NCBI GenBank assembly: GCA_002269645.1 | Contig: NIVC01004114.1 | Location: 49,548-113,547, forward strand | Direction of reading: 5' to 3' | DNA: 64,000 bases | DNA from: Macrostomum lignano | Taxonomy: Eukaryota | Shown: positions 3,603-49,256 of the stretch, in pieces | How the letters are laid out: each line of letters starts with the position of its first letter | Numbering within the stretch: position 1 is the stretch's first letter | Notes under the pieces: generated by a model | Told to the model about the DNA's origin: nothing | The model's input: the letters and a program-made list of their open reading frames with translations, nothing else | Databases searched by the model: none | Program-made: the position numbers and the translations under genes

Positions 3603-3825
3603 TTGCACGCTTGTGTCAGTGTGTATCAATCAAACTTGCACGCTTGTGTCAGTGTGTATCAATCAAACTTGCACGCTTGTGTCAGTGTGTATCAATCAAA
3701 CTTGCACGCTTGTGTCAGTGTGTATAAATCAAACTTGCACGCTTGTGTCAGTGTGTATAAATCAAACTTGCACGCTTGTGTCAGTGTGTGCCAATCAAAC
3801 TTGCACGCTTGTGTTGTGCCAGTGT
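3603..3825. repeat. 33-bp minisatellite (TTGCACGCTTGTGTCAGTGTGTATCAATCAAAC)n, about 7 copies
   Basis: Direct tandem repeat. Confidence 0.95.
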
Positions 3826-3948
3826 GTATCAAAAGTACTGACAATAGATTTTAAATTTTTATGAGCATATGTCGTGCGCGCTTTATAAGGCATCCCGTTA
3901 TTGACATGTTTGTAACCCAATCCGACTTCATTGCCAGTTGATCATAGA

Positions 3949-5325
3949 TTATAAATCGGCTAATTCAAAACTGGCGCCAGCGGAGAGGCCGAAGAATTGC
4001 GATTTATCACCACCAATGTTATTATTATTATCGAAAAAGGAGTCGCCCAAAATAGCTGGCACACTGCCAAGAGAGGAGGCACCAGCTGAAGAGTTTAAAT
4101 TATCGTATTCGCTGCTCGGTTGGCAGACGCTCAATTCGACTAAGGAAAAGTCTGCCGCCTCACCCTGCTGGCAGGTGGGATACTGCGGCTCAATCTCGGC
4201 TGAAGGTTGAATAATTGTTTCAGCATTAGTTAGTTGCTGATTCGGCAACCACACCTGTCGCCTATCAGCCTGTTGTTCCCCAGTCAAAAACATTGACTGT
4301 TCGTTAAAGAATACTTGCTGCTGGCTCAACTGTTCAGATCCATAGTAGCCAGCCACTAAACTAGAACTTTGACTGGTGCCGTAACCCGAATCGAGGCGGG
4401 CATCTATCTGGCATTGTTTCAGGTACTGCTGAGCCTGCTCCTCCTGCTGCTGCTGAGACGGCTGTGGCGATGGCTTAACCAGTAGTATTTCAGACGATCG
4501 ATTAGCGTTAGTATTGAAATCTGGTTTCCAATCGTCTGTGCAAACAAAATTAGATTGCTGATGAGGATGATGACGGCCCGGCTGACTAGCAGCGCCAGAA
4601 TTATAGCTAGGCTGCTGATAAGTCACCGACTGCAGATTCAGCATTGAACAACTGGAGGACTGTTCGTTAGTAGTTAAGAATCCTGCCTGCTCGCAAGATA
4701 CCAACAGTACGGGAAATTGTCCAATGATGTAATACTCCTGCTGTTGAAGTGGTGCGCAGCTGCTCTCTGCAGCAGTTTCTTTAACTAATTGGCAATCCGG
4801 ACTAATAGCAGCGCTACACAATTCTTGATCGGCACTGTCGGTTAAATCAATCACTGATTGGTTCAAGTCAATATTGGCACAGTCTTCGTCAACATGCTCA
4901 GCCTCGCCTTCAGCTGAATTAAAAGCGATATTGCCGCCTAGCTCTGATCGCCAAGTTCCTGAACTATAATTAACAAAATGCAACCGACGCCCACGACCTC
5001 TGCCGGAACTTTTGGTGAACCAGTAGCTACCATTGACACCACTATTAGCTGATTGCTCCGGTGACTCAAACTCTAAACGTGACGTCAGGGCGCTGTACAC
5101 AACAGGCGAAGGTGACGGTGTTGACAAAGCTGCACTATAATTCAAGCTTCTAGGGGTGACAGTGGAAGTTTTACTACCGCGACCTCCACGATGGCCACCT
5201 CGAGTGCTGCTGCCTTTGCTGGCAGGACTAGCTAGCATCATTTCTAGCCTAGGCAATGGTGCTGCATTGAACTGACTATCAATGGAAGATGCCCAGCTAT
5301 AGTCTAGCTCCATTTCAGAAAACAT
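3949..5325 (-). CDS. Intronless 458-aa S/Q-rich, probably disordered protein of unknown family
   Basis: Long uninterrupted ORF with higher GC than its AT-rich flanks. Contains DSGYGTS, RRLHF/SRLEF and S/T-P motifs. No recognised domain. Confidence 0.65.
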   Translation of the reverse strand: MFSEMELDYSWASSIDSQFNAAPLPRLEMMLASPASKGSSTRGGHRGGRGSKTSTVTPRSLNYSAALSTPSPSPVVYSALTSRLEFESPEQSANSGVNGSYWFTKSSGRGRGRRLHFVNYSSGTWRSELGGNIAFNSAEGEAEHVDEDCANIDLNQSVIDLTDSADQELCSAAISPDCQLVKETAAESSCAPLQQQEYYIIGQFPVLLVSCEQAGFLTTNEQSSSCSMLNLQSVTYQQPSYNSGAASQPGRHHPHQQSNFVCTDDWKPDFNTNANRSSEILLVKPSPQPSQQQQEEQAQQYLKQCQIDARLDSGYGTSQSSSLVAGYYGSEQLSQQQVFFNEQSMFLTGEQQADRRQVWLPNQQLTNAETIIQPSAEIEPQYPTCQQGEAADFSLVELSVCQPSSEYDNLNSSAGASSLGSVPAILGDSFFDNNNNIGGDKSQFFGLSAGASFELADL

Positions 5326-12100: not shown

Positions 12101-13435
12101 GTTGACAAATAAAAAGTTAACTAGTTTACCCAGATCTACTACCAAAGTGTCTAATTGCTATAACTGCCAATTGCAATAATTGCTAATGTCTTGTTACCAA
12201 AGTGAATAATAGTAATAGCTATATAGAAATAGAGGTATCTACACTTTTTGGTCCCTATGCTTTTTGGTGCCTAAATTATATAAATTAGAATTGAACACAA
12301 AAATATAGAAATTGAACCCTAATTTAACAATAAGTGCTATGTCTTGGCAATACTTGTTAACTTTAAAAAATTAAGTTTATTATTCAGTTTGTTAAGCTGA
12401 ACTAGTTTTTAAATAAAAAAATGGTTTAGTTTCATTTAATTTTTTATCTTGATTTGATTTTTCAAGAAATAAAAAACTAAGATTATGTGATTCAAGAAAT
12501 CAATACAAAAATAGACTAGTCATATAGATTTCAATCAAAACTGATATATAGCATTGACAAGCATTTCGCTACCCATTAACACGCACGCGGGATGCGTGCT
12601 ATTGTCCATAGAAAAAAAACATTAGTTTAACGAGTTTTTAGATGACCCAAAAATTAATTATTAGATGATTAATTTTTATTTATACGGTTTATAATTGTAA
12701 ATTATAGACAACAACTACTTATAGCATGAAAATGAGGGGGAAATGTCTAAAGCCATAGTTTCTCTCGAAGAATTAGTATTTTTGATAGATACGCCCTACT
12801 CAAACACAGTGTTAATAAAATTGTTGTTGCCGTCAATGCAAACACGCATATTCTTGGTCGGACGTACAGGCCTCGATATGAACTGGCCGAGGAACCGGCT
12901 CGTCAATTGATTGTGGGGTGGCATTGCAACTGGTGATCCGTCATCACTTGCGTGCAGACAGTAGAACTGATAGAGCCGCTCGCATTAGCAGAGAAAGACG
13001 CCTCATTGGACGGCATTGTGCTTGTGCTTGGAATATGCCGGCTTAGTGCACAGTTCACTGCCTTGGAACTCCTGAACAGACTGTGGTCCCGGCACCTGGT
13101 TAAATACCTTTTGACCGTCTTCTCACATTTCTGACCGGTAATAAGCATTATGTCTTGCAGCGAATGGCCAGCGGCGTCTAGATCGCACACTCTAGTGACT
13201 CTGTGGGAGAATCAAAGGAAAGTAATTTTACATGAACTAGTTAAAACTATTATTTATAAATATACTATTTATATACTATTTATATACCATATCGGAAAAC
13301 GAAATTTACTTACCTAATACAGTGATTATTGTAGACCTTGCTTAGACCGGCCCTCGCACTAAGTTTCTTCATAAATTCTTGAAGGAATCGATATCCTCGA
13401 GTGGTCTTCTCGGAGAAACGGTACGGTTTTAAAGA
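8267..13435. repeat. Near-identical 2.4-kb direct duplication (8267-10702 and 10997-13435) flanking the gap; probably an unmerged contig overlap
   Basis: Both copies abut the N gap exactly and differ mainly by small indels. Confidence 0.85.
10703..10996. other. Assembly gap (N run)
   Basis: Run of n characters. Confidence 1.
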
Positions 13436-13520
13436 TTGGCCTTGGAGAGGCTTCGGAAAAAAACGATAGCGAAGCACAGGGCCTAAACGGGTATATTTAT
13501 TCAAATATACTGGAGGGGGT
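12903..13520 (-). mobile_element. Crypton-type tyrosine recombinase C-terminal fragment, two exons (about 13520-13314 and 13200-12903); partial second copy at 10173-10702
   Basis: Spliced translation FMKKLSARAGLSKVYNNHCIR|VTRVCDLDAAGHSLQDIMLITGQKCEKTVKRY matches the Crypton/DUF3504 YR motif (NHxxR...GH...Y). 113-bp GT-AG intron (AG|GTAAGT ... CCCACAG|A). Confidence 0.8.
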
Positions 13521-13712
13521 GTAAGATAAGACAGGGGGTGGGGTGGAGTCCGCAACCAAGGAAAGAGGCGAGAACTGAGAGCCAATCAGAAGGCAGCGAG
13601 GGAGAGAGATAAATGACATAACAAAATTGAACTAGACAGATTCTACTGAGACTGCATTGTCTTTCTCGATCATAAACAACTAGCCTATTTGGAAACACTA
13701 GTCAATGCACTT

Positions 13713-13805: not shown

Positions 13806-14366
13806 GAATATACCAATATTGACAGATTATAATCTTTACATAACTAAGTTTTTATAATTTATAGTATACCTTGCTTGGTATAGCCTTCTATTTGTATATA
13901 TAAGACATGGCAAATGCATGCAATTAAATTGATCAAATTTTTCAAAATTTAAAAAATATGCTAGTTTAACAAAATGAATACTGCTTTTATCAGGAAATTT
14001 AAACATTTTGTAAATTATTAATTATATTTATTGTAGGATTACTTTTTTATTATTATTTTGGCATCACTAACTTTGAGGCAATAATGCAATTGAGGCAAGA
14101 AGCAGAAGAAAGCAGTTTGAGGCACTGAAATCCTGGGCACCAAAAAGCATAGAAACCTAAATAGATAATATAGTATCTTACTATTTATTAAGGCCATAGA
14201 TAAGCTATAGGCCTACCTATTTATGTTAGCCTAGCCTAGGTAATATAAAAATAGTGATTAAAATAGGCCTAAGCATAAAAATCCATGGGCAAAACATATA
14301 ACAATAGTATAGGCCTAGTTCTTCAGTGAGGGTCTTTTGACTTGCTAAGATAGGCGGCCTACATAG

Positions 14367-15258
14367 TGTAGAAGGGCCTATGTTTAAATTAGTATTTTCC
14401 CACAAAATCAAATTCCCACCAAATAACAAATACCGTATAATTTGTTTTAATTCACAAAATTTGTTTTATTGAATAATTTTTGTTTTAGCGAAGTGAATAA
14501 ATTTGTTTTAATGTTGTAGCACAAACCAATAAAGAAAGACTTTGACTAGTATAAATATAAGGTATACTAAGGTATACTAAATAATAATATAAGGTATACT
14601 ATAAATATATTAACAGGAAATTAAGATTTGGTTCTTCTGATTAGTCCTCTGAAGCAGTATTGCAGACTAAGTTACAGTGTTGGATAGCAAAGAGCATTTT
14701 GCCAGTACAGTGATGAGCAAGGATTGCCAGTAAAGAGGGTGGAATACCCAATGTAAAGGATGGAATACCCAGTGTAGAAGGGTGGAATACCCAGTGTAGA
14801 AGGGTGGAATACCCAGTGTGAAGGTTGGATTACCCAGGAAGGGAGAATTTTCAGGTTGCTCAGATTAGCGTGATGCAGTTCTAAGTTGTGAGAGACAGTA
14901 ATAAAAGAAGCTGGAAACCTCTTGGTCTGTAGTAAACGCCGTGTTTGGACTATAGAGTAGGAATTTAGCAGTAGTCAGCAGTGTTTTACCTCTTGGGCAC
15001 TGAAGCTACCTAGGGTAATTTGTAGCAACAATAGCCTATAACATAAAAAGTACATGTAAGTTTAGAAATAAGATTCTAGGAAATAGCAAATTTAGTGCAT
15101 ATTAGTACAGCTAAGTAGGATTAAATAGGCAGAAATAGATATAAACCTGCAACAACTTGGTGACTAATTGGTGGGATCTCAGTAGGCAGCGATTAGGCCT
15201 ATAACAACTTTGTGGCATTAGTGGGATTCTGAGAGATAGAGGAAACAGGCCTGCTACA
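14367..15258 (+). repeat. 5' LTR
   Basis: Aligns by eye with 22929-23808; terminal inverted TGTAG(A/C)AGG..CCT. Confidence 0.95.
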
Positions 15259-15261
15259 ACT

Positions 15262-15280
15262 TGGTGGCAGCGGTGGGATT
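15262..15280 (+). promoter_or_regulatory. Primer-binding site complementary to tRNA-Leu 3' end
   Basis: TGGTGGCAGCGGTGGGATT is the reverse complement of ...AAUCCCACCGCUGCCA-CCA (tRNA-Leu AAG/CAG type), 3 nt after the LTR end. Confidence 0.9.
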
Positions 15281-15351
15281 GAGGAACCGGCAAAAATCTA
15301 GTATAGTGTTTTAAGTAATTAAAAGTACATTTTAAAAGTACATTAGTTAGG

Positions 15352-16700
15352 ATGGCTACAGGAATTAATGATGCAATTGCACTTTTAGCTGAGGAGATTA
15401 GGAACAAATTAGAATTAGGACCATTAAGGCATGTGAAGATACAGAAGTTTACACCTAGCCAGGATATTAGGATTTGGCTCACTGCTTTCGACCAGAGGTG
15501 TGAAGCAGAAGGAATAGAAGTAGAGCATAGGAAGACTAAGCTATTAGCTAACCTAGATCTAGCAACAGCATTTGCTGCATTGCAAAGGCTGAATTTGCCT
15601 GATGAGCTACCCTATGAGGAGATTAAGGAACGCCTAGTAGAGAGGTTCAGTAGAATAGGTAGTGCATCAGAATTTTGAGAGGAATTTTGTGGGAGAATGC
15701 AGGGTAGGAATGAGACTGCGGAAGCCTATGCCGATGCATTGATTGAGTTGTCCACAAGGGCTTTTCCTAATATGAACGCTGAACAGCGCGAGGAGGAAGT
15801 AGTTGAACAGTTTATTAAGGGATAAGAATCCCAACAGACACTAGGGAGAAGCTAATTTTTGCGCAGCCAGCTAATCTGCAGGAGGCTAGGAGAATGTTGC
15901 GTAGCATATGTCACACAAAGGAGGTGTGAAGATGGTGAAGGAGGGAGAGGATGAGCAGCAGAAGCTACAGGAGCTGGTGAGACAGCAGAAGGATGGGCTG
16001 GAATAGCAGAGGAAGAGAATTGAAGAGCTCATGGCGTATAAGCCACTGTACAAGCCAGGGCCTCAGCCATGTCCAGCTCAGATGCCGCGTCAAGCATTCT
16101 AGCAGCAGCCGCATTTCAGCCACAATTTCAAATATGTATCGGCCCAGGCCAAGGAATGAGTTCGTAGGCAAATCATTTTGTGCTGCAGCCAGGAAAGTGT
16201 GCAGTCTGCCAGAATCCGGGACCGATAAGGCCTGGTTTTGACCATCAGTGCCGCCTGTTCCGCAATCGAGGTAATCAGGGAAACTAAAGTTTGAAGGTTG
16301 AGAGACAAGGCCACGTCCCTCCAGAAAATTTAATTGCAAAATGAAGGCCTCTAAGTGTGATTCTCAAGGTTGGCAAACTGTCCCCATTCGAAAGAGACAT
16401 GCGTGATACAACTGTAAATAATGCGTTTAATGCACCTGCATCTGCACCATCTGTATTTTCTGCATCTGCATCTGCCGCATCGCGATATGTTGTCCCTGCA
16501 TCTGCTGTTGATGAGTCAGCATCAGCCGATGAGTCCCGAGAAGAAGAAGAAGAACCCGCACTTGAAGCAAGCCAACCAAAGCCGAAAAAGGTAAGCAAGT
16601 GTAAAGTTTTTGTCAAATCTAAGGTAGAACTAGTGAATCATAAAAGTTACGAGGCAATAGTAGTAGGCAATATAGAAAAACAGGACTTTTATTAGATACG
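15352..16700 (+). pseudogene. gag: Gypsy gag (stops and frameshifts)
   Basis: KFTPSQDIRIWLTAF...YEEIKERLVERF...QGRNETAEAYADAL capsid-like motifs. Confidence 0.8.
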
Positions 16701-19700
16701 GGTGCCAGAAACAATTTCTTAAGTCAATCAGTGTGGTCAAAACTATTCGAACAAGATCAAATTAGGGAGACGAATAAGAGAGTTTCCACATTCGATGGAA
16801 CGAGAGTTCAGTTAGATGGCGAAGTACATACTGCAGTGAAATTTAGAGACTTTGAAATCGAAATTGATTTCCTACTATGTAGCCATGAGTGTGATAACAT
16901 ACTCGGAATGGAGTTTTTCCTAGAGCAGTGTGAGAGCATTCATCAAACAAAAGGCATGCTTATCTTGAAAGAGGGAATGTGTATTCCTATGCAGTACACC
17001 CACCTTCTGGTAAAGGTTTGCCGAGTATATATGCAGGAGAAGGCAGTCATTCCACCAAATAGTGCATTGCGAATCCGTATGCCTAGCAAAAAATTCTGAA
17101 TCTAATTATGGAGCTCCAATGACAATTGAGACAATTGGAAATGGTGTGAGAGCAAGAGAAGAGACTCTGGAGATGAATCCAACTCTAGTGACTAGCGTGA
17201 AGGAGTAGCTATAGTGGAAGTCGTGAACTCGAGTCTAGTAGAAGTTAACTTGCCAAAATCATCGCTAGTAGGTTTAGCCAAGCCAATGAGAGCTAGAGAA
17301 CTTACCTATCTAACTAGTGAGAAAAATCAATCAGAGCCAGTTACTGAGCGAGTCGATCAGGCGCAATCTAATGACAAGTCTTGGATTAGTGAAATTAATA
17401 TTAGCGAGAACTTAACAAAAGAGAAAAAGGAGAAAGTGATTCAGCACAGTGAAGCCTTTTCGCAAAATGAATTGGATATGGGTCTAACTCAGCTAGTGAC
17501 ACATGAAATTTCATTAAAAGATGAGACGCCTGTGAGGATCCCAACTAGAAGGATTCCCCCTCATCTTTAGAAGCAGGTAGACACTCAGTTAGATGACATG
17601 CTAGCTAAGAACTTAATTTGACCATGCTACTCTACGTACTCAACACCCTTAGTGATTGTACCCAAGAAGGATAATACTATTTGCACTGTGAGTGATTTCA
17701 GAGTACTAAATTCTAGGGTAAATTATTTCCCATATCTGTTGCCTAATATTCAGGAAACTTTCTTGCATTTGATGGGCAGTCAGTACTTTAGTAGTCTTGA
17801 CCTAAATTCTGGTTATTGGCAGGTTCCAATTAAGGAAGAGCACAAACACATGACTGCATTTTCAACTTTAACTAGAGGGCAATTTGAGTATTAGGTGATG
17901 GCGCAAGGCCTATCTAATGCACCAGGCATTTTTCAAAGGCTTATGAATCTTGTATTGGCGGGCATTCAGCACAAATATGCCATGTCATACATAGATGACA
18001 TTGTGACTTATTCGAAATGATTTGAAGAGCATTTAGAGCATTTGAAGGAAGTTTTCCAAAGACTTATTAATGCAGGACTAAAGTTGATAGCTAAGAAATG
18101 TAATTTATTCCATAGTGAGCTAAAATATTTAGGCCATGTGATTGGGAGAGAAGGAATTAAGACCAACAAGATGAAAATAGAAGCTATTAAGAGTTGGCCG
18201 AAGCCAAAGGAGGTGAAGGAATTACGAAGCTTATTAGGATTATGTAACTACTATAGTCGCTTTGTCAAAAATTATGCCAAAGCCGTGTATCCCTTGTTTC
18301 AATTGACTCGGAAGGGAGTGCAAAATTTTCAAGCAAAATGGACTAAGGCTCATGATTAGGCATTTGAAGAATTAAAAAATAGAATGATGTCAACAGAAGT
18401 TTTAGCTTATCTGGAGTTTGTAGACGATGAAAATGTTAAATGGTTTTAGACACTGATGCTAGTGATGGACGCATAGGAGCCTGTTTAGGTCAAATCCAGT
18501 CAGGTGGCATCAAGAGGCCTATAGCATATTTCAGTCGTGCTATGAAGGAATTGGAGAAACGGTATCTTTTTACTAGAAAGGAACTATTAGCTTTAGTAGA
18601 CGTGATGAAGCATTTTAGGTTTTTTTTAATATGGAAGTGATTCCTAGCGCGCACTGATCATAAAGTAATTCTGTGGTTATAAAAGCAGACAGAAGCTCAA
18701 GGAATTCTAGGTCAATGGATAGAATGATTAAATGAGTTCCAGTTTGATATAGAACATAAAAGTGGGGCAAAACATTCTAACACAGACAGTTTGTCCAGAA
18801 GACCGGCAGAAGAAGGCATGAGTGTCAGGAAAGAAGGTGTGAAAGCCAGTAAATTTATGAATGAAGAAGGCATGAGTGCCACGAGATAAGGCGTGAAAGC
18901 CAGTGAATCTGTGAATGAAGATGGTGTGAGTGCCATGAAAGAAGGTGTGAGAGCTGTGGAAAACTGTAGTGAAGGAGAGATGCAGACTCTGCATCCCACT
19001 GATTCAGAATCTAGGATTGAGTCATTAATCTCAAGAGAGAAAGGTGTGAAAGAAACTGATGTGTCAGCACTAAGTTCAAGCAATATGCAATTGAACCGAG
19101 ACACTGATCCTGAACACATGAAGAATGATATGCCTAAAGTTAAAAAATTATTGACTGATTATTTGCCAGTACCCTTGAAAAAGGAACAGATTGTAAAAGC
19201 TCAGAGAGAGGACGCAGCAATTTGCACATTAGTTAAATGGAAGCAAGATAAGCTGTCAGTTCCCCCATCTCAAGAGAGCAACTCAGCTGAGTTAAAGCAG
19301 TTAAGCAAGCATTATGAGAATATGAAGCTAGAAAAGGAAATGCTCATTATTGAAGAAGATCAGAAATGGAAAGTCGTCTTGCCTAGATCCTTGGATAAGC
19401 TAGTTCTTAGCAATCTACATGATAGCCTACTAGCCGGACATTTAGGCAGGGACAAGACAATCCAGTGTGTCAAGGAGAGATTTTGGAGGCCAGGTTTAGT
19501 CACCGCAGTAGAGAAATATGTGGCGGAGTGTATTCCGTGCCTAGAGAGCAAAAGAGGTCATAAGATCCAGGCGCCAGTACTGTCATTTCCAATCAGTGAA
19601 CCATTTCATAGATTGCATATAGACATGATTGGGCCAATCTTGAAAGTAAGCAAAAGAGGGCACCAGTATGTTCTAACTATAGTGGATAGTAACACGCGAT

Positions 19701-20992
19701 ACCCATTTGCATTCCCAATGCGTAATCAGAAAGCAGACATGATTATCAAATTATTACAAGAGAGAGTGTTCAGTGAGTATGGCCAGTGCCATTGGATTCA
19801 CACGGACAATGGTAAAGCATTTACTAGCAAGCAGTTTAATTTGTTTTGCGATTTGTATAATGTTAAGCATATATGCACGACCCCATACCATGCCCAAAGT
19901 AATGGTTTGGTGGAGCGATTTAATAAACAAATTAAATCAATTATTACTTGCTTAATAGAGAAAGACCACAGTGATTGGGATCTGCTAATCCCAGCAGCAT
20001 TAGTAGTAGTCAGAACCAGTGTGAACCAGACCACCAGATATTCACCTCATTTTCTATTAATTGGAAGAGAAGCAGTTTTGCCTATGGATAGTGAGCTCAG
20101 GGAGTCAAATAATTACGCTAATTATCCAACGTATGCTGCCGAACACACAAAGAGGCTAGAGAGTGCAAGAAAACTTGTGAGAGAGAAGTACAAGAAGGTG
20201 CATAGCCATAGACAGGAAAATGCAGAAAATCAGAAAAAGCCCAAAAATATCGCACTAGGAAGTCTAGTACTAATAAATAATCTGCAATTAGAGAATGAGG
20301 AGTCAAATAAGTTTTATAGGAAAAAGAGAGCAGCTTACAAAGTGCTAAAGCAGATTTCGGAGGTTGTCTTCAAGATCCAGAAGGAAGAAAACAGAGAATT
20401 AACAGGCAATAAACTAATAGTGCATAGAGACATGACATTAGTACCGAACTCAACCAGAGAGCCAATAGATAAGGGAGGCCAGCCCAGTATGCCAACTGCA
20501 GAGCTTCAAGATAAGGGAAGCCAGGCGGCAGAGGCAATTTGCAAGGGAAGCCAGTCCAAGAAGAAGACAAGAGCTAGACCAACTAAGAAGCTATGTGAAC
20601 AAGAAGAAGAGTCATCATCAGATGAAGAAGACCAAATCAATTGGCAGTGCAAACTCCGTGATGGAAATGAATCTGTAAGAGGAAGCGATTTAGAGATAGG
20701 AGCAGAAGTAGAAGTTAGGGAGGAAAGAAGCGAAGGAGAGAGTACACAGCGTGAAAGCTTAGGGAGAAAGGGAGAAGAATCAGAGCTTGAGTACAAGGGA
20801 GAGAGAGAAAGTGAGGAGGAGGTTGCACATGAGCACAGTGAGTCAAAGGAGGAGATATCACATGCCGAGCAGAGTGAGAGACAGGATGACGCAATACTAG
20901 CTAAAAGGTATAACACGCGCAGTCAGATTAAGCCCCCAAACAGATGTCAGTGCTATCTGAAAAGGCTAATCTCTGTGTGGAGCCTATTATAG
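16690..20992 (+). pseudogene. pol: Gypsy pol: protease, RT, RNase H, integrase with long acidic C-terminal tail
   Basis: LLDTGA (PR); LDLNSGYWQV and YIDDIV (RT); VLDTDAS (RH); H-H-CC, HIDMIGP, IHTDNG, NGLVERFN (INT). Several premature stops; INT frame 18893-20992 is still open. Confidence 0.95.
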
Positions 20993-21018
20993 GGACTAAA
21001 ATTTTGAGTCAGGGGAGA

Positions 21019-21243
21019 ATTGGCAGCGAGGGTAAGGCACAGAGCAAACAAACAAGTGGGATTTCATTGGGTAAGGGAATGAAATCAGAGCAGCCAATTA
21101 AAAGCCAGCTATTGGGAAGGCCAGGAGTGGTCAACTGGGAAATCGGGGCAATCAGCCAATGAAAATTCAGCTTTTGATTAAATGAATTGATGGGCAAATT
21201 AAAACAAACAACGCCTAGAGTGGGGTGCCACGCCTATATAAAC
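21019..21243 (+). promoter_or_regulatory. Internal promoter-like cluster: five CCAAT/ATTGG boxes plus TATATAAA
   Basis: ATTGG at 21019, 21066, 21111; CCAAT at 21094, 21156; TATATAAA at 21235. Confidence 0.55.
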
Positions 21244-21316
21244 AAACACCCAGAGGTGAGAGGAAGTCAATTATAGTTGTGTTGACAGCTAGTAACCGTT
21301 TTGGTATTGATTGACC

Positions 21317-22424
21317 ATGTTGGATTGCAATAGTTCCGTAATGGAAGATACAATTGATATAATGGCGGAAGACGATATCTTAGACAAGATTTTAGCTGAC
21401 ATTGAGATAGGAAGTGTAGAGGAAATTGAAGTAAGTGTGAGTGCAAAGACATCAGGAGACAACGCCGTGATGGTAGCGGAACTGGCAAAGATGTCAGGTG
21501 ACAACGCCGTGATGGCAGCAACGACGAAGTCATCAGGAGATGACACCGTGACGATAGCAGCAGTGGCAATGACGCCCAACAACAGCGCCGTGGTGGTGGA
21601 GGATGAAGAGGATCGCCCAACCAAGCAGCTGAAGTTGGTGATTATCAAGAGGACATCTACTGAGACAGAAGGTGCGCAGTCAGCTAAGCGGCCTGCCCTG
21701 GGGAACCAGCCATTGGTTCCACACGACCCAAAGGCCCGAGCGCAGCTGCTTAGCAACCAAGCCAACAGGCCGGTGCCTGTCATTCTGGCCATCATGAAGT
21801 GGTAGCCACAAGGCATTTGTCTTGCCAGTCAATTCCGGCCGATTCAGCCGAGGCTGCCGGCAGCAGTTGGTGGGCGAGGACGACAAATAGCAGCAGCAGC
21901 AAGCTGCTGAGGGCCATCAGCCGCAGCGGCAGCAGCAGCAATCGGCGGGCAGCCTGCACCAAAATTGATGGCAGCTCTGACACCAGCGCCGTCTACGGTT
22001 CCGAAGCGGCCACAGGATGCGGCAGCTTGTGGGTCAGCCAGCGCTGCAGACTAGCCTAGGCTCTGACTTCCCGGCCATGCTCGACAGGATCCCAAGAGCT
22101 CAACATGACCAATTGAAATGCTTTATCAAGATGTTGAAAGGGCACCTGATGCGCATGGTGTATCTACGCACAGATCGGCCAACTCTATGTCGGTGCATGC
22201 AGGCCAAACCAGTGCTGCGTCTACTGGTGCAGCAATTCGATCTGGAGTCCAGAATCGCAGCATGGCGCCAAGCAATCCAATACGTGCTGCTTAATCTAAC
22301 ACAGGTTGGGCAAACTTTCCATTGACTGCTTCTACAAATTGAGATCCGCTAGATGGTGGATCAGCTCGGCTGCCTTACCACGATCAGCTGCCTGAGGAAT
22401 TCAAACTCGAGCGTAATTAAGTAA
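21317..22424 (+). pseudogene. Accessory ORF3 of the Gypsy element (not env-like; unknown function)
   Basis: GC-rich coding-like region after pol; open segments 21317-21805 and 22017-22325 linked by stops and a frameshift; no signal peptide or TM segment seen. Confidence 0.55.
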
Positions 22425-22928
22425 ATGAACTTTTGCAATTGTGAACTTACGTTTATTTGCATAAATTTCTATGCTAGTGCTATTTTTCTTTGTGAATTGC
22501 TTTTAATTACGTGAATACTATTTTTTTGCGCGAATTACTAGTGCTAGTGCTAATTTTTCAGTGAATCTGTTTTATTTAGTGTGAATTTTAAGACAATGCT
22601 ATTTTTTTTTGCATGAATTTATGTTTTTGCTCTTATTTGGTTGAAGTTTCTGTACTTGTTTTTTGTGAAGTAGTCTTTAGAAATTTCTTATTTTCTGCAT
22701 GCACAATTTTTATTTTATGCTTATTTTTCTTTGGTGAAAAATTGCTTGATGACTTAGTGCTTTTCAAATGTTTATTAGCAACTATATTGTCTTGTATTTG
22801 TGCCATTAATACATTGCTCAGTTTTTTATGAATATGTATTGTTGTTGTTTTCCATTTATTACTTATATTAGTAGGCCTATCATTTTGTTCACTTAAAAAT
22901 TTGCTAAATAATATTCAGGGAAGCCAAC

Positions 22929-23808
22929 TGTAGAAGGGCCTATGTTTAAATTAGTATTTTCCCACGAAATCAAATTCCTGCCAAAATTTACAAGTACCGT
23001 ATAATTTGTTTTAATTCACAAATTTGTTTTATCGAATAATTTTTGTTTTAGCGAAGTGAATAAATTTGTTTTAATGTTGTAGCGCAAACCAATAAGGAAA
23101 GACTTTGACTAGTATAAATATAAGGTGAAGCTAGAACATTTTCTTTAACCTCGACCTTTTGGGTTCCTAACTCAGTTAATAGGAAATTAAGATTTCTTGG
23201 TTCTTCTGAATTAGTCCTTTGAAGCAGTATTGCAGACTAAGTTACCGTGTTGGATAGCAAAAAGTGTTTTGCCAGTATAGTGATAAGCAGGGATTGCCAG
23301 TAAAGAGGATGGAATACCCAGTGTAGAAAGGTGAAATACCAAGTGTAGAAGGGTAGAATACCCAGTGTGAAGGTTGGATTACCCAGGGAGAATTTTCAGG
23401 TTGCTTAGATTAGCGTAATGCAGTTCTAAGTTGTGAGAGACAGTAATAAAAGAAGCTGGAAACCCATTGGTCTATGGTAACGCCGTGTTTGGACTATAGA
23501 GTAGGAATTTAGCAGTAATCAGCAGTGTTTTACCGCTTGGGCACTGAAGCTACCTAGGGTAATTCGTAGCGACAATAGCCCATAACATAAAAAGTACATG
23601 TAAGTTTAGAAATAAGATTCTAGGAAATAGGCCTAGCAAATTTAGTGCATATTAGTACAGCTGAGTAGGATTAAATAGGCAGAAATAGATATAAACCTAT
23701 AGCAACTTGGTAACTAATGGGTGGGATCTCAGTAAGTAGCGATTAGGCCTGTAACAACTTTGTGGCATTAGTGGGATTCTGAGAGATAGAGGAAACAAGC
23801 CTACTACA
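22929..23808 (+). repeat. 3' LTR
   Basis: Homologous to 14367-15258; followed by TSD ATAG. Confidence 0.95.
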
Positions 23809-24121
23809 ATAGTCTTAAAAAATCAAATTTGAATAAAAAAGCATTTTTGCAAAGAATTGGCTAACTTTGCTTTGCAATACAATTATAAATAAAGTAAAAC
23901 AAAAAGTTCTAAGTTTTTGAAGCCCTCTAAGTTTTTATAAAATGAAGTATTTAAAGTTAAAGTAGGCCCCTATATATATTATTACTAAATATTATACAAT
24001 TTATAGCATTGTAGCATAACTTTAACTTGGGTTGCTCTATATCAGTTAATACATTAGCTTTTTTAAATCTCGACTCTGCACCCATGACTTAACTTCCAGA
24101 AATTCTATAGGCACTAGGGCC

Positions 24122-44519: not shown

Positions 44520-47500
44520 TCAAGCTGTTGATCTCAGGCGGAAGTACGCTATTTCAGATGCTCCACCGCAAAATTCTATGTGATTTCCTGGGCATCGGAG
44601 CGAGCAACTTGTATTGGCCACCAATTTTAATGAACCTCCTGGTACTCTCTTTTCAGGCAAGTCCTCAGCACACATGCATTTGTTACCATTACCGATGGCG
44701 AAGTATTTCAATTTGCTGTAGAGATCACGCCTTATACACTCGGTAGCGCAAATCAGGTGTGAGCCGTGCGACATCTCTTTGATGGCTATCGATTCGTACT
44801 CGGCCTCATAAAAGTCACTATATGCCATGTAGCATGCCTCCATAGAACCTGAAGCATTAATTAACACCAAGTGAGCAGATATACACAAACTAATGGTCAT
44901 ATTTTCAATAAAATCATGCAGAAATATCCAACAGATCATGCATCAAAATGAACTCAAATAGTTACTCACTTGGAAGAACTGGATAGACCTTCGCTCCCTG
45001 CTTGAATTTATCTAAATGGGAAAATTGTTGGGGTTGGAATCGGTAGAGAGCATTTTACATCAGCTTGAGCAGATGTCCAGATTAAATGGAGATAAAATGA
45101 GGGAGGAGAGCAGCTCAACTGGAAGCATTGCAAGACTCGTGAGAAGAATTGAAGTCTCATTGGAGAATCGTATACAATGGTAAGATGTGAACAAAGGCAA
45201 ATTTCCAAAAATGAATACTCGCCTGTTTTCGGAGGAGTAAGTGTTGAACTAAGGCGAAAATATGCCAGATTATATAGACCACCGCACGATTCCCTGTGAT
45301 TTCCTGGGCATCGGAGCGAGCAACTTGTATTGGCCACCAATTTTAATGAACCTCCTGGTACTCTCTTTTCAGGCAGTCCTCAGCACACATGCATTTGTTA
45401 CCATTACCGATGGCGAAGTATTTCAATTTGCTGTAGAGATCACGCCTTATACACTCGGTAGCGCAAATCAGGTGTGAGCCGTGCGACATCTCTTTGATGG
45501 CTATCGATTCGTACTCGGCCTCATAAAAGTCACTATATGCCATGTAGCATGCCTCCATAGAACCTGAAGCATTAATTAACACCAAGTGAGCAGATATACA
45601 CAAACTAATGGTCATATTTTCAATAAAATCATGCAGAAATATCCAACAGATCATGCATCAAAATGAACTCAAATAGTTACTCACTTGGAAGAACTGGATA
45701 GACCTTCGCTCCCTGCTTGAATTTATCTAAATGGGAAAATTGTTGGGGTTGGAATCGGTAGAGAGCATTTTACATCAGCTTGAGCAGATGTCCAGATTAA
45801 ATGGAGATAAAATGAGGGAGGAGAGCAGCTCAACTGGAAGCATTGCAAGACTCGTGAGAAGAATTGAAGTCTCATTGGAGAATCGTATACAATGGTAAGA
45901 TGTGAACAAAGGCAAATTTCCAAAAATGAATACTCGCCTGTTTTCGGAGGAGTAAGTGTTGAACTAAGGCGAAAATATGCCAGATTATATAGACCACCGC
46001 ACGATTCCCTGTGATTTCCTGGGCATCGGAGCGAGCAACTTGTATTGGCCACCAATTTTAATGAACCTCCTGGTACTCTCTTTTCAGGCAGTCCTCAGCA
46101 CACATGCATTTGTTACCATTACCGATGGCGAAGTATTTCAATTTGCTGTAGAGATCACGCCTTATACACTCGGTAGCGCAAATCAGGTGTGAGCCGTGCG
46201 ACATCTCTTTGATGGCTATCGATTCGTACTCGGCCTCATAAAAGTCACTATATGCCATGTAGCATGCCTCCATAGAACCTGAAGCATTAATTAACACCAA
46301 GTGAGCAGATATACACAAACTAATGGTCATATTTTCAATAAAATCATGCAGAAATATCCAACAGATCATGCATCAAAATGAACTCAAATAGTTACTCACT
46401 TGGAAGAACTGGATAGACCTTCGCTCCCTGCTTGAATTTATCTAAATGGGAAAATTGTTGGGGTTGGAATCGGTAGAGAGCATTTTACATCAGCTTGAGC
46501 AGATGTCCAGATTAAATGGAGATAAAATGAGGGAGGAGAGCAGCTCAACTGGAAGCATTGCAAGACTCGTGAGAAGAATTGAAGTCTCATTGGAGAATCG
46601 TATACAATGGTAAGATGTGAACAAAGGCAAATTTCCAAAAATGAATACTCGCCTGTTTTCGGAGGAGTAAGTGTTGAACTAAGGCGAAAATATGCCAGAT
46701 TATATAGACCACCGCACGATTCCCTGTGATTTCCTGGGCATCGGAGCGAGCAACTTGTATTGGCCACCAATTTTAATGAACCTCCTGGTACTCTCTTTTC
46801 AGGCAGTCCTCAGCACACATGCATTTGTTACCATTACCGATGGCGAAGTATTTCAATTTGCTGTAGAGATCACGCCTTATACACTCGGTAGCGCAAATCA
46901 GGTGTGAGCCGTGCGACATCTCTTTGATGGCTATCGATTCGTACTCGGCCTCATAAAAGTCACTATATGCCATGTAGCATGCCTCCATAGAACCTGAAGC
47001 ATTAATTAACACCAAGTGAGCAGATATACACAAACTAATGGTCATATTTTCAATAAAATCATGCAGAAATATCCAACAGATCATGCATCAAAATGAACTC
47101 AAATAGTTACTCACTTGGAAGAACTGGATAGACCTTCGCTCCCTGCTTGAATTTATCTAAATGGGAAAATTGTTGGGGTTGGAATCGGTAGAGAGCATTT
47201 TACATCAGCTTGAGCAGATGTCCAGATTAAATGGAGATAAAATGAGGGAGGAGAGCAGCTCAACTGGAAGCATTGCAAGACTCGTGAGAAGAATTGAAGT
47301 CTCATTGGAGAATCGTATACAATGGTAAGATGTGAACAAAGGCAAATTTCCAAAAATGAATACTCGCCTGTTTTCGGAGGAGTAAGTGTTGAACTAAGGC
47401 GAAAATATGCCAGATTATATAGACCACCGCACGATTCCCTGTGATTTCCTGGGCATCGGAGCGAGCAACTTGTATTGGCCACCAATTTTAATGAACCTCC

Positions 47501-49256
47501 TGGTACTCTCTTTTCAGGCAGTCCTCAGCACACATGCATTTGTTACCATTACCGATGGCGAAGTATTTCAATTTGCTGTAGAGATCACGCCTTATACACT
47601 CGGTAGCGCAAATCAGGTGTGAGCCGTGCGACATCTCTTTGATGGCTATCGATTCGTACTCGGCCTCATAAAAGTCACTATATGCCATGTAGCATGCCTC
47701 CATAGAACCTGAAGCATTAATTAACACCAAGTGAGCAGATATACACAAACTAATGGTCATATTTTCAATAAAATCATGCAGAAATATCCAACAGATCATG
47801 CATCAAAATGAACTCAAATAGTTACTCACTTGGAAGAACTGGATAGACCTTCGCTCCCTGCTTGAATTTATCTAAATGGGAAAATTGTTGGGGTTGGAAT
47901 CGGTAGAGAGCATTTTACATCAGCTTGAGCAGATGTCCAGATTAAATGGAGATAAAATGAGGGAGGAAAGCAGCTCAACTGGAAGCTTAGAGGAATCGCA
48001 TGTGGACTTCAGTTTGCGAATCTGGGATTCCAACCTGTTTAGTAGTAAAGCGTGTGTGTTTCTGTACCCATTTTCACCTCAGTCAGAACCGGCTCATTTC
48101 ACTGAATAGGTCGTACCTGCCTGATTTCTGAGAAAAGTGTTTTCTTTAGGCTGAAATACACTGTCCCATCCTGTGACCCGCAGTCATGCGCTGAGTTCTC
48201 TATCTGGCTTTCAAGGTAGAAGTGTTTTCCGGTCGCTGGCTTAAAGGTACAAGCTGATCGGGCATGGAGAGGGGGCTTACAGTATGTAGGGATATCGCTA
48301 TTGGAAAATCAACTTTAAAGCCGAAGTCTCCTCACCTGGATTTCTCAAAGCGTTGTGCTCTTTCGGATCCTTCTGCGTTTCCGGAAGTGCAACAAGCTTA
48401 GCTGAAAGGCGGCAGTATTATCGTGAATGCAGCTCAGCATGAGCACAAGCTAAACCGTTTGTCAAAGGCAAGAAAAGCTATTGAGAAACAAAAATGAAAA
48501 CAAAAAAATGCCAAACAAAATGAGGCCTCTCGATCCGGCCAAGAGGTCCTTTGGAACCTCACAATAGCAATTTGGCACGCTCAGAATTTGTGTCTTCCGA
48601 ACTCTCTACAGATAGTCGAATCGAATTTCCCTCTCTCTGCTCTCTCCTCTCTTTTCTCCTGCTTTTCTCTCTTCTCCTCTCTCCTATCTTCTTCTCTCCT
48701 TTTCTACTTTCTTTTTTCCATTTCCTCTCTCGCCTTTCTGCTCTCTCCTCTCTCTTCTTCTGCTTTTCTTCCTTTTCCCGTCTCCTCTCTCCTCTTCTCT
48801 CTTCTCACTTATTTCCTCGTTTCTTCTCTCCTGTCTCTCTTCTCTTTTCCCGCTCCTTTGTCCCCTCCTGTGACCCGCAGTCATGCGCTGAGTTCTCTAT
48901 CTGGCTTTTCAGGTAAAAAAGCTTTGGGTCCCTGGCTTAAAGGGTACAAGCTGATCGGGCATATAGAGGGGGGCTTACAGTATGTAGGGATATCGCTATT
49001 GGAAAATCAACTATAAAGCCGAAGTCTCCTCACCTGGATTTCTCAAAGCGTTGTGCTCTTTCGGATCCTTCTGCGTTTCCGGAAGTGCAACAAGCTTAGC
49101 TGAAAGGCGGCAGTATTATCGTGAATGCAGCTCAGCATGAGTACAAGCTAAAGCGCAGGAGAATAACCTATACTCACATTTCTTTGAGGAAGGGCAGCTC
49201 AAAGATCCGTAGATGGCTGCGCTCATGCAGAACAGAAGCAGAACCGCTCGGATCAT
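44520..49256 (-). CDS. Secreted WSC-domain gene with an amplified exon pair; signal exon 49256-49178, 42-bp exon + WSC exon repeated five times at 715-bp period, terminal WSC exon 44848-44520
   Basis: Signal MIRAVLLLFCMSAAIYG; WSC pattern CATEC...YFAIGNGNKCMC...CSLRCPGN..E.CGG...AYF; all junctions phase 1. The four internal WSC exons are 341 bp (1-bp deletion). Confidence 0.7.
44700..47990. repeat. 715-bp tandem array (about 4.5 copies)
   Basis: ORF track repeats at 45008/45723/46438/47153 with identical translations. Confidence 0.97.
48162..49152. repeat. About 290-bp direct repeats (48162-48454, 48859-49152) flanking a CT-rich tract, in WSC-gene intron 1
   Basis: CCTGTGACCCGCAGTCATGCG...GCAGCTCAGCATGAG occurs twice. 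Confidence 0.85.

Follow-up and report, generated by a model that had tools for sequence, protein, structure and literature searches.

The question raised by this locus is what kind of gene a Ty3/Gypsy element of Macrostomum lignano carries between the stop codon of pol and the 3' LTR, and what that gene could do for the element. In the window, by which we mean the whole stretch of 64,000 nucleotides of contig NIVC01004114.1 that was analysed, a first-pass annotation had proposed from the letters alone that this gene is a non-env accessory gene behind its own internal promoter.

The window element and its broken third gene

The element occupies positions 14367 to 23808, is flanked by a 4-bp target-site duplication (left copy at 14363-14366, right copy at 23809-23812), and has the LTRs, primer-binding site, polypurine tract, target-site duplication and pol order PR-RT-RH-IN of Ty3/Gypsy. 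It is an old, dead copy, since its LTRs are only 87.6% identical and gag, pol and the third gene, hereafter ORF3, are all broken. On the plus strand, the 5' LTR (TG...CA, 14367-15258, with a TATA at 14550) is followed by the primer-binding site (15262-15279), presumably of the tRNA-Leu type, by gag (15352-16288), for which a sibling with an open 317-aa frame was found, and by pol with its acidic tail (16300-20992, the start being approximate). Behind pol lie, on the same strand, a putative internal promoter and 5' UTR (20993-21340), laid out in the same way in open siblings, ORF3 itself (21341-22420), a T-rich 3' untranslated region (22421-22916), the polypurine tract (22917-22928) and the 3' LTR (22929-23808, with a TATA at 23113).

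The pol stop at 20992, the five CCAAT/ATTGG boxes behind it (at 21019, 21066, 21094, 21111 and 21156), TATATAAA at 21235 in the putative promoter and the peptides quoted in the first-pass annotation were all confirmed on the sequence. The ATG at 21317 to which it had pointed is present as well, but it is not the start of the family, being found in three of the nine closest loci (L001-L003) and replaced by GTG in the other six, and the shared start is at 21341. Likewise, the coding-like third ORF of about 1.1 kb is a real gene in the family, but the annotation had omitted that the window copy is pseudogenised: four in-frame stops (21803, 21908, 22323 and 22350) interrupt it, and its frame changes twice, around 22015-22053 and around 22376. 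Intact copies were located, three of the closest (L101-L103) having open frames of 363-368 aa.

Other features of the window and of related LTRs were also observed. Five short direct repeats lie downstream of the TATA in the 5' LTR (14738-14836), and lineage-specific tandem repeats were seen in the LTRs of L053, L056 and L062, the last with about ten 46-bp units. At the LTR ends of many loci there are extra degenerate copies of the LTR end and primer-binding site, up to several per LTR (in the window at 15157-15279 and 23760, including two extra primer-binding-site-like copies in the 5' LTR at 15157 and 15210). A hairpin-like motif in U5 followed by a GCYACCA resembling a tRNA 3' end (14979-15002 and 23523-23546) recurs in different lineages, where it could base-pair with the primer-binding site; covariation was absent from the hairpin fold of three sequences. 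Outside the element, fragments resembling a tyrosine-recombinase gene, which we take to be Crypton-like, were seen on the minus strand at 12903-13585, a 715-bp unit is repeated five times at 44660-47819 with 100% identity over 300 compared bases, and numerous minisatellite arrays lie within 26400-63400. A motif search of the available supplements of PMC12801592 for placement among the Gypsy clades Gmr1/Osvaldo, Mag, CsRN1 and Mdg3 gave no match.

A conserved third gene that is not an envelope

ORF3 is a real, selected, non-envelope third gene after pol. A search of the genome with its C-terminal domain returned at least 150 matches with identities down to 26% (150 scored candidates, 150 matches), two further searches returned at least 150 and 141, and a DNA search returned 22; some of these places are probably redundant assembly copies, to judge from the available text of PMC5730564. 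One hundred matched loci were retrieved, mostly stop-free by choice, so that counts of intact copies among them are biased upward. An upstream pol was present in 53, 28 were Gag-only LTR elements, and 19 were of other or truncated form, of which 17 carry family 3'/LTR sequence downstream. The open frames range from 275 to 535 aa across the family. In the C-terminal domain, pN was lower than pS in 170 of 171 pairs from 19 elements, and the dN/dS of the whole ORF3 was 0.27-0.64 among four siblings; the comparison of copies that had been proposed with the first-pass annotation thus revealed constraint.

All ORF3 types share an acidic N-terminal helix, variable repeats, basic motifs, a central helix and the C-terminal domain. 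In the window, on the plus strand, the amphipathic acidic N-terminal helix, activation-domain-like or NES-like, lies at 21362-21400, the conserved central helix (R..LL..QA..PV motif) follows the basic KRP/KR motifs at 21728-21766, and the conserved five-helix C-terminal domain of about 115-120 aa, here broken, lies at 22053-22417. The SGDNAVM repeats noticed earlier are present, but they are specific to a subfamily, and other lineages have different repeats at the same place. An amphipathic pattern was found in 23 of 24 distinct N-termini (5.7 expected) and the pattern Phi-x-x-Phi-Phi in 18 of them (5.1 expected); of the 35 listed proteins, all are acidic over their first 40 residues and 34 have a basic middle part. 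The C-terminal domain, in which an Asp, a Pro and two Trp are invariant, has only a slightly basic charge (net +1 to +8), and DNA binding is therefore not indicated. AlphaFold2 predicted five helices for this domain (pLDDT 88.6, pTM 0.84), and for the full protein helices at residues 8-20, at 130-142 and at the C-terminus, with disorder between them.

The protein found no match to known families in the searches made. Pfam returned no family for the full ORF3 protein, and among 35 members no family was hit by more than 3 (best E 0.019), the best E in a PDB sequence search was 0.098, the best ESM Atlas score (0.77) was under the threshold for recognition, and Foldseek gave no match at E<=0.001 in PDB and BFVD. 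For the predicted model, the best VIA-align Z scores of 8.1 (rmsd 3.6, 113 aligned) and 7.6 are in the usual range for helical bundles and would establish neither a new fold nor a relative. No Pfam match pointed to an enzyme of the GDSL or DEDDy type, and the AlphaFold2 model is all-helical. Searching the literature for the SSVV motif turned up no relevant work.

That ORF3 might be a degenerate env, or a non-coding GC-rich stretch, is a thought invited by its occupation of the env position and by the broken state of the window copy, but it is hardly credible. None of the 63 open ORF3s has a signal or membrane segment by the criterion of a Kyte-Doolittle 19-mer above 1.6, the maximum being 1.11 (0.75 in the N-terminal part), and both frame and sequence are under purifying selection. 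There is no conserved cysteine framework, with Cys in at most 13 of 35 sequences in any alignment column. ORF3 is not env, given the absence of a membrane-like segment and the unconserved cysteines; the first-pass annotation was right on this point, and the Cys-containing C-terminus that it listed is not a trait of the family.

In a library of 1.84 billion proteins, ORF3 had six matches, namely five named M. lignano proteins and one unnamed cluster, so that its named homologues are M. lignano proteins only. One of the matches is identical to the frame in L097/L110. The GenBank gene models of this species were built from transcripts, according to the available text of PMC5730564, which suggests that some ORF3 copies are transcribed; one homologue's gene model includes sequence 5' of the proposed ORF3 start, and its source may be a full-length RNA. 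The gene identifiers of four named homologues were absent from the available supplementary files of PMC5730564 and PMC12801592. Contigs from sequencing runs guessed to be RNA span both elements tested, although such contigs cannot reveal starts or levels, and neither a GT-AG joint nor a start signal was found in them across these two elements; they were left out of any reading of expression.

Promoter motifs and apparent exchange of the 3' block

A promoter in front of ORF3 is likely, because TATAWAW and CCAAT are enriched there and because the edges of the apparently exchanged cassettes described below cluster there. TATAWAW occurred 24 times in the internal promoters where 5.7 were expected, and 11 of the 14 promoter types had it; for CCAAT the count was 22 (11.6 expected), from 10 of the 14. 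The independent promoter that had been proposed is in this respect probable, but clustered CCAAT boxes are not a general feature: a TATA upstream of ORF3 is found clade-wide, the five-box cluster is confined to the window's branch, and only 3 of the 14 promoter types have three or more boxes. When 20993-21234, a region picked post hoc, was shuffled preserving dinucleotides, 26 of 5000 shuffles reached five boxes (mean 1.2). Several types of one pool combine a decayed TATA with an acceptor-like TTTTTCAG at the same place, and trans-splicing would be possible for these types, since M. lignano trans-splices many genes (PMC5730564, available text). In 100 loci, neither the 600 bases preceding ORF3 nor the 1.5 kb following it contained a canonical heat-shock element.

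The internal promoter shows no enrichment of E2F-like sites (1 against 4.2 expected); in U3 they number 17 against 2.6 expected and occur in 9 of 25 U3s, which are related, so that these counts are non-independent. The cell-cycle reading that had been attached to the CCAAT boxes therefore fits the LTR better; the window's own LTRs have no perfect E2F-like site. TTGTTTWAA is repeated in U3 (28 sites in 20 of 25 elements, 1.5 expected) and is present in the internal promoter of the window's branch, where a reverse copy ends at 21207, though in only 3 of the 14 promoter types. A TTCTWAGAAA palindrome was seen in the U3 of 10 of the 25 elements. We take these U3 motifs to resemble host sites for E2F, Fox/Sox and STAT, and for this reason the LTR may need no element-encoded activator. 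No element-specific motif common to U3 and the internal promoter was found by comparison of 7-mers (sharing of 0.159 within an element vs 0.155 between elements).

Elements whose integrases are 94-99.6% identical carry deeply diverged blocks of ORF3, 3' UTR and U3. The integrase and ORF3 trees agree at depth, and within four pol pools the integrase is nearly uniform and ORF3 is deeply split. For instance, L062 and L148 are 99.6% identical in integrase DNA and 54% identical in the amino acids of the C-terminal domain, and in four pairs pS was 0.09-0.12 for integrase vs 0.58-0.78 for ORF3. In sliding profiles, divergence sets in shortly ahead of the ATG and continues into the 3' LTR, and the sequence on either side of this block is often 90-100% identical; among 325 pairs from 26 elements, identity of at least 85% was found for upstream DNA in 14 pairs, for R in 3, and for the 3' UTR and U3 in 1 each. 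The idea of a TAR-like target in the R repeats was weakened, as R is common to different ORF3 types in several pairs. The window lineage (L101) has no partner of another type within the sample.

The edges of the block were located in several ways. Upstream DNA was similar and the domains were diverged in 39 pairs, of which 36 have their break 13-292 bases ahead of the ATG; the remaining three comprise one artefact and two that imply a crossover inside ORF3. That such crossovers also occur follows from L126, which shares its promoter with L139/L140 and has a different C-terminal domain. Against the nearest-integrase partner, the edge fell within -150 to +110 of the TATA-like box in 17 of 19 elements, out of about 1.3 kb, and for all within-pool pairs 25 of 44 edges fell in this interval and 17 of 44 in -60 to +110, where the pairs are non-independent, the interval of -150 to +110 was chosen post hoc and, for one pool, the position of the TATA anchor is not certain. 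In one pool, the divergence sets in at the TATA or shortly ahead of it rather than 30 bases further on. Contigs from two sequencing runs branch at the cassette edge into other cassette types. As a separate observation on L065 and its related pool, the pol frame of L065 ends soon after the integrase core, about 1 kb short of ORF3, in contrast to the long acidic tail seen in other pools.

The diverged block might be explained if ORF3, 3' UTR and U3 are exchanged together between co-packaged RNAs as these are reverse transcribed, with the switch often falling at the promoter. Each ORF3 type would in this way stay with its own U3, and gag-pol would be shared. Template switching from a subgenomic mRNA may be involved, since the diverged block matches the span that such an mRNA would have. 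Alternatively, the pattern could result from ordinary crossover at the last homologous stretch followed by selection against chimeric proteins.

Proposed function and known systems

We tentatively propose, with a probability of about 0.4 and partly by analogy, that ORF3 is an internally promoted, diffusible nuclear activator of the LTR in the manner of foamy virus Tas, as suggested by the Tas-like layout, the amphipathic acidic helix, the basic motifs, the P/Q-rich linkers and the linkage to U3. A subgenomic mRNA would extend from the internal start as far as the 3' LTR. Its product would enter the nucleus by way of the basic motifs, co-activators would be drawn in by the acidic LxxLL-type helix together with the P/Q-rich linker, and U3, or a host factor bound to it, would be contacted by the helical C-terminal domain, thereby raising transcription from the LTR of the element. 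The nuclear accessory factor of the first-pass annotation is plausible to this extent, judging from the basic motifs.

The same N-terminal helix could serve another purpose. It is possible, if doubtful, that ORF3 is a shuttling adaptor like Rev, Rec or CERV, which would bind an RNA element in the 3' UTR or U3 and use the helix for export by CRM1. A class-1 NES pattern is present in 14 of 24 N-termini (2.2 expected) and a pattern of any class in 16, basic NLS-like motifs and RS/SP-rich linkers are present, the 3' UTR travels with ORF3, and CERV of Cer1 provides a Gypsy precedent (PMC10309623, as far as its available text goes); the weak fold neighbours Gle1 CTD (Z 7.9, rmsd 3.5, 120 aligned) and Pdcd4 (Z 7.3, rmsd 4.4, 99 aligned) would also fit, both at background level. 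However, 10 of the 24 N-termini lack the class-1 pattern and 8 fit no NES class, neither a conserved Cys loop nor an Arg-rich motif was found, and no intron that would call for an export factor was identified in the genomic RNA.

A nuclear activator that diffuses would be expected to act in trans, and the pol-less elements bear on this. These are young elements of 5-6.5 kb, most with LTRs 98.6-100% identical, which lack PR, RT, RH and the integrase core, keep the pol tail, the promoter and the ORF3 slot, and encode a distinct Gag of 191-197 aa. In this mini-Gag (L080, L088, L090, L113, L116, L123, L128 and L140, at about 3750-4970 in oriented coordinates), a Gag-like N-terminus, a hydrophobic stretch and a Cys/His knuckle were seen, and the middle of the normal Gag is missing; about 1.3 kb of largely non-coding DNA common to pol-less elements follows it. 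An unbiased genome search with the mini-Gag gave 50 rows at 46 places. A C-terminal-domain match is near the mini-Gag at 39 of them, with a full open ORF3 at 24 of the 39; at four others there is only a repeat-filled remnant, one of these having LTRs 100% identical, and three are decayed. With 4 of 46 places lacking the C-terminal domain, a strict requirement for ORF3 in cis was rejected. In cis, ORF3 is favoured without being indispensable, which is what a diffusible factor would lead one to expect, and action in trans is supported by the young copies in which ORF3 is lost or frameshifted. Six of these, at different sites, have the same ORF3 frameshift, which lies in a short homopolymer run and is possibly an assembly error. 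Separately, a young Gag-only lineage (L153:4057-4980, L154 and L155, three copies in tandem on one contig) was seen to have no C-terminal domain; its ORF3 slot contains a frame without ATG that is made of GC-rich repeats of 30 bp.

The retention of the mini-Gag and, usually, of the ORF3 slot at 39 of 46 places would also suit a role in the particle or in competition, with ORF3 as a Gag/Pol-binding assembly or nuclear-import helper, or as a restriction factor against other types, comparable to Ty1 p22 from an internal transcript. We consider this very unlikely, given that Gag and pol are common to different ORF3 types with no matching co-variation and that only 24 of those 39 places have a full open ORF3.

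The diversity of ORF3 calls up a further alternative. Mean pN was 0.46 for ORF3 vs 0.11 for integrase, so that ORF3 changes much faster, many deeply diverged types coexist on one pol pool, and the LTRs carry lineage-specific tandem repeats, all of which could be expected if ORF3 were an anti-silencing or chromatin factor, following the logic of VANC, that shields matched copies from piRNA or heterochromatin and lets rare types escape the host. This is quite unlikely in our view, because the LTR repeats lie downstream of the LTR TATA, where identity between different ORF3 types returns, and thus do not travel with ORF3, and because no pairwise excess of amino-acid changes was found (1 of 171 pairs, with very few changes). 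The nuclear activator could also be part of a larger circuit in the style of complex retroviruses, in which a regulator of new fold and its own U3/3' UTR target would be shuffled by template switching from the subgenomic mRNA, and the cassette would be moved onto shared gag-pol backbones and pol-less parasites as interchangeable specificity types; this fuller picture is on present evidence unlikely.

Non-env third genes in animal Gypsy elements (PMC5408684), CERV and Tas are already known, as the available texts indicate. In the literature searched, no published description of ORF3, its promoter or the cassette exchange was found; ORF3 is absent from PMC12801592, the paper on M. lignano LTR elements, as far as its available text and supplement 1 go, figures aside, and from the available text of PMC13524379, and an earlier classification paper (reference 16 of the M. 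lignano LTR literature) may mention extra ORFs. Trans-acting regulators with an internal promoter are a mark of complex retroviruses, and very few accessory proteins of LTR retrotransposons have a known role, CERV being one of them. Since dozens of natural ORF3/U3 types are found on near-identical pol backbones and M. lignano offers transgenesis and a working LTR reporter (PMC12801592, available text), tests of specificity with matched and mismatched pairs would be direct. The cassette pattern also cautions that classification of families by RT hides most of the diversity of the ORF3-bearing clade.

Plant TR-GAG elements are non-autonomous LTR elements with gag and without pol; the mini-elements differ from them in their distinct Gag of 191-197 aa, the pol tail, the internal promoter and the ORF3 that is usually kept. 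Juno and Vesta of bdelloid rotifers resemble the present family in having a non-envelope gene in the ORF3 position of an animal Ty3/Gypsy element, and TelKA2n is a non-autonomous derivative keeping an ORF3, of env type (PMC5408684, available text). However, the bdelloid ORF3s are captured GDSL or DEDDy enzymes or TM proteins made from spliced messages (same source), whereas the M. lignano ORF3 has no match in Pfam and is preceded by promoter motifs. CERV of C. elegans Cer1 is likewise a Gypsy-encoded, lineage-restricted accessory protein with a candidate NLS and NES, and it is nuclear, while the nuclear placement of ORF3 is predicted; CERV comes from a spliced mRNA with exons in common with gag and has H/M/G domains and a Cys loop (PMC10309623, available text), in contrast to ORF3, which stands as a gene of its own behind pol, has a single five-helix domain and lacks a conserved Cys. 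With foamy virus Tas (Bel1), ORF3 has in common the placement as an accessory gene at the 3' end, the sharing of the 3' LTR and, as a likely feature on the side of ORF3, the internal promoter (PMC3185757, available text). No sequence relationship between the two was found in Pfam or by Foldseek in BFVD, and activation of U3 is only proposed for ORF3. ORF3 is also unlike Tas in its env-less Gypsy host, in the placement of the putative promoter between pol and ORF3, and in the coexistence of many allelic types.
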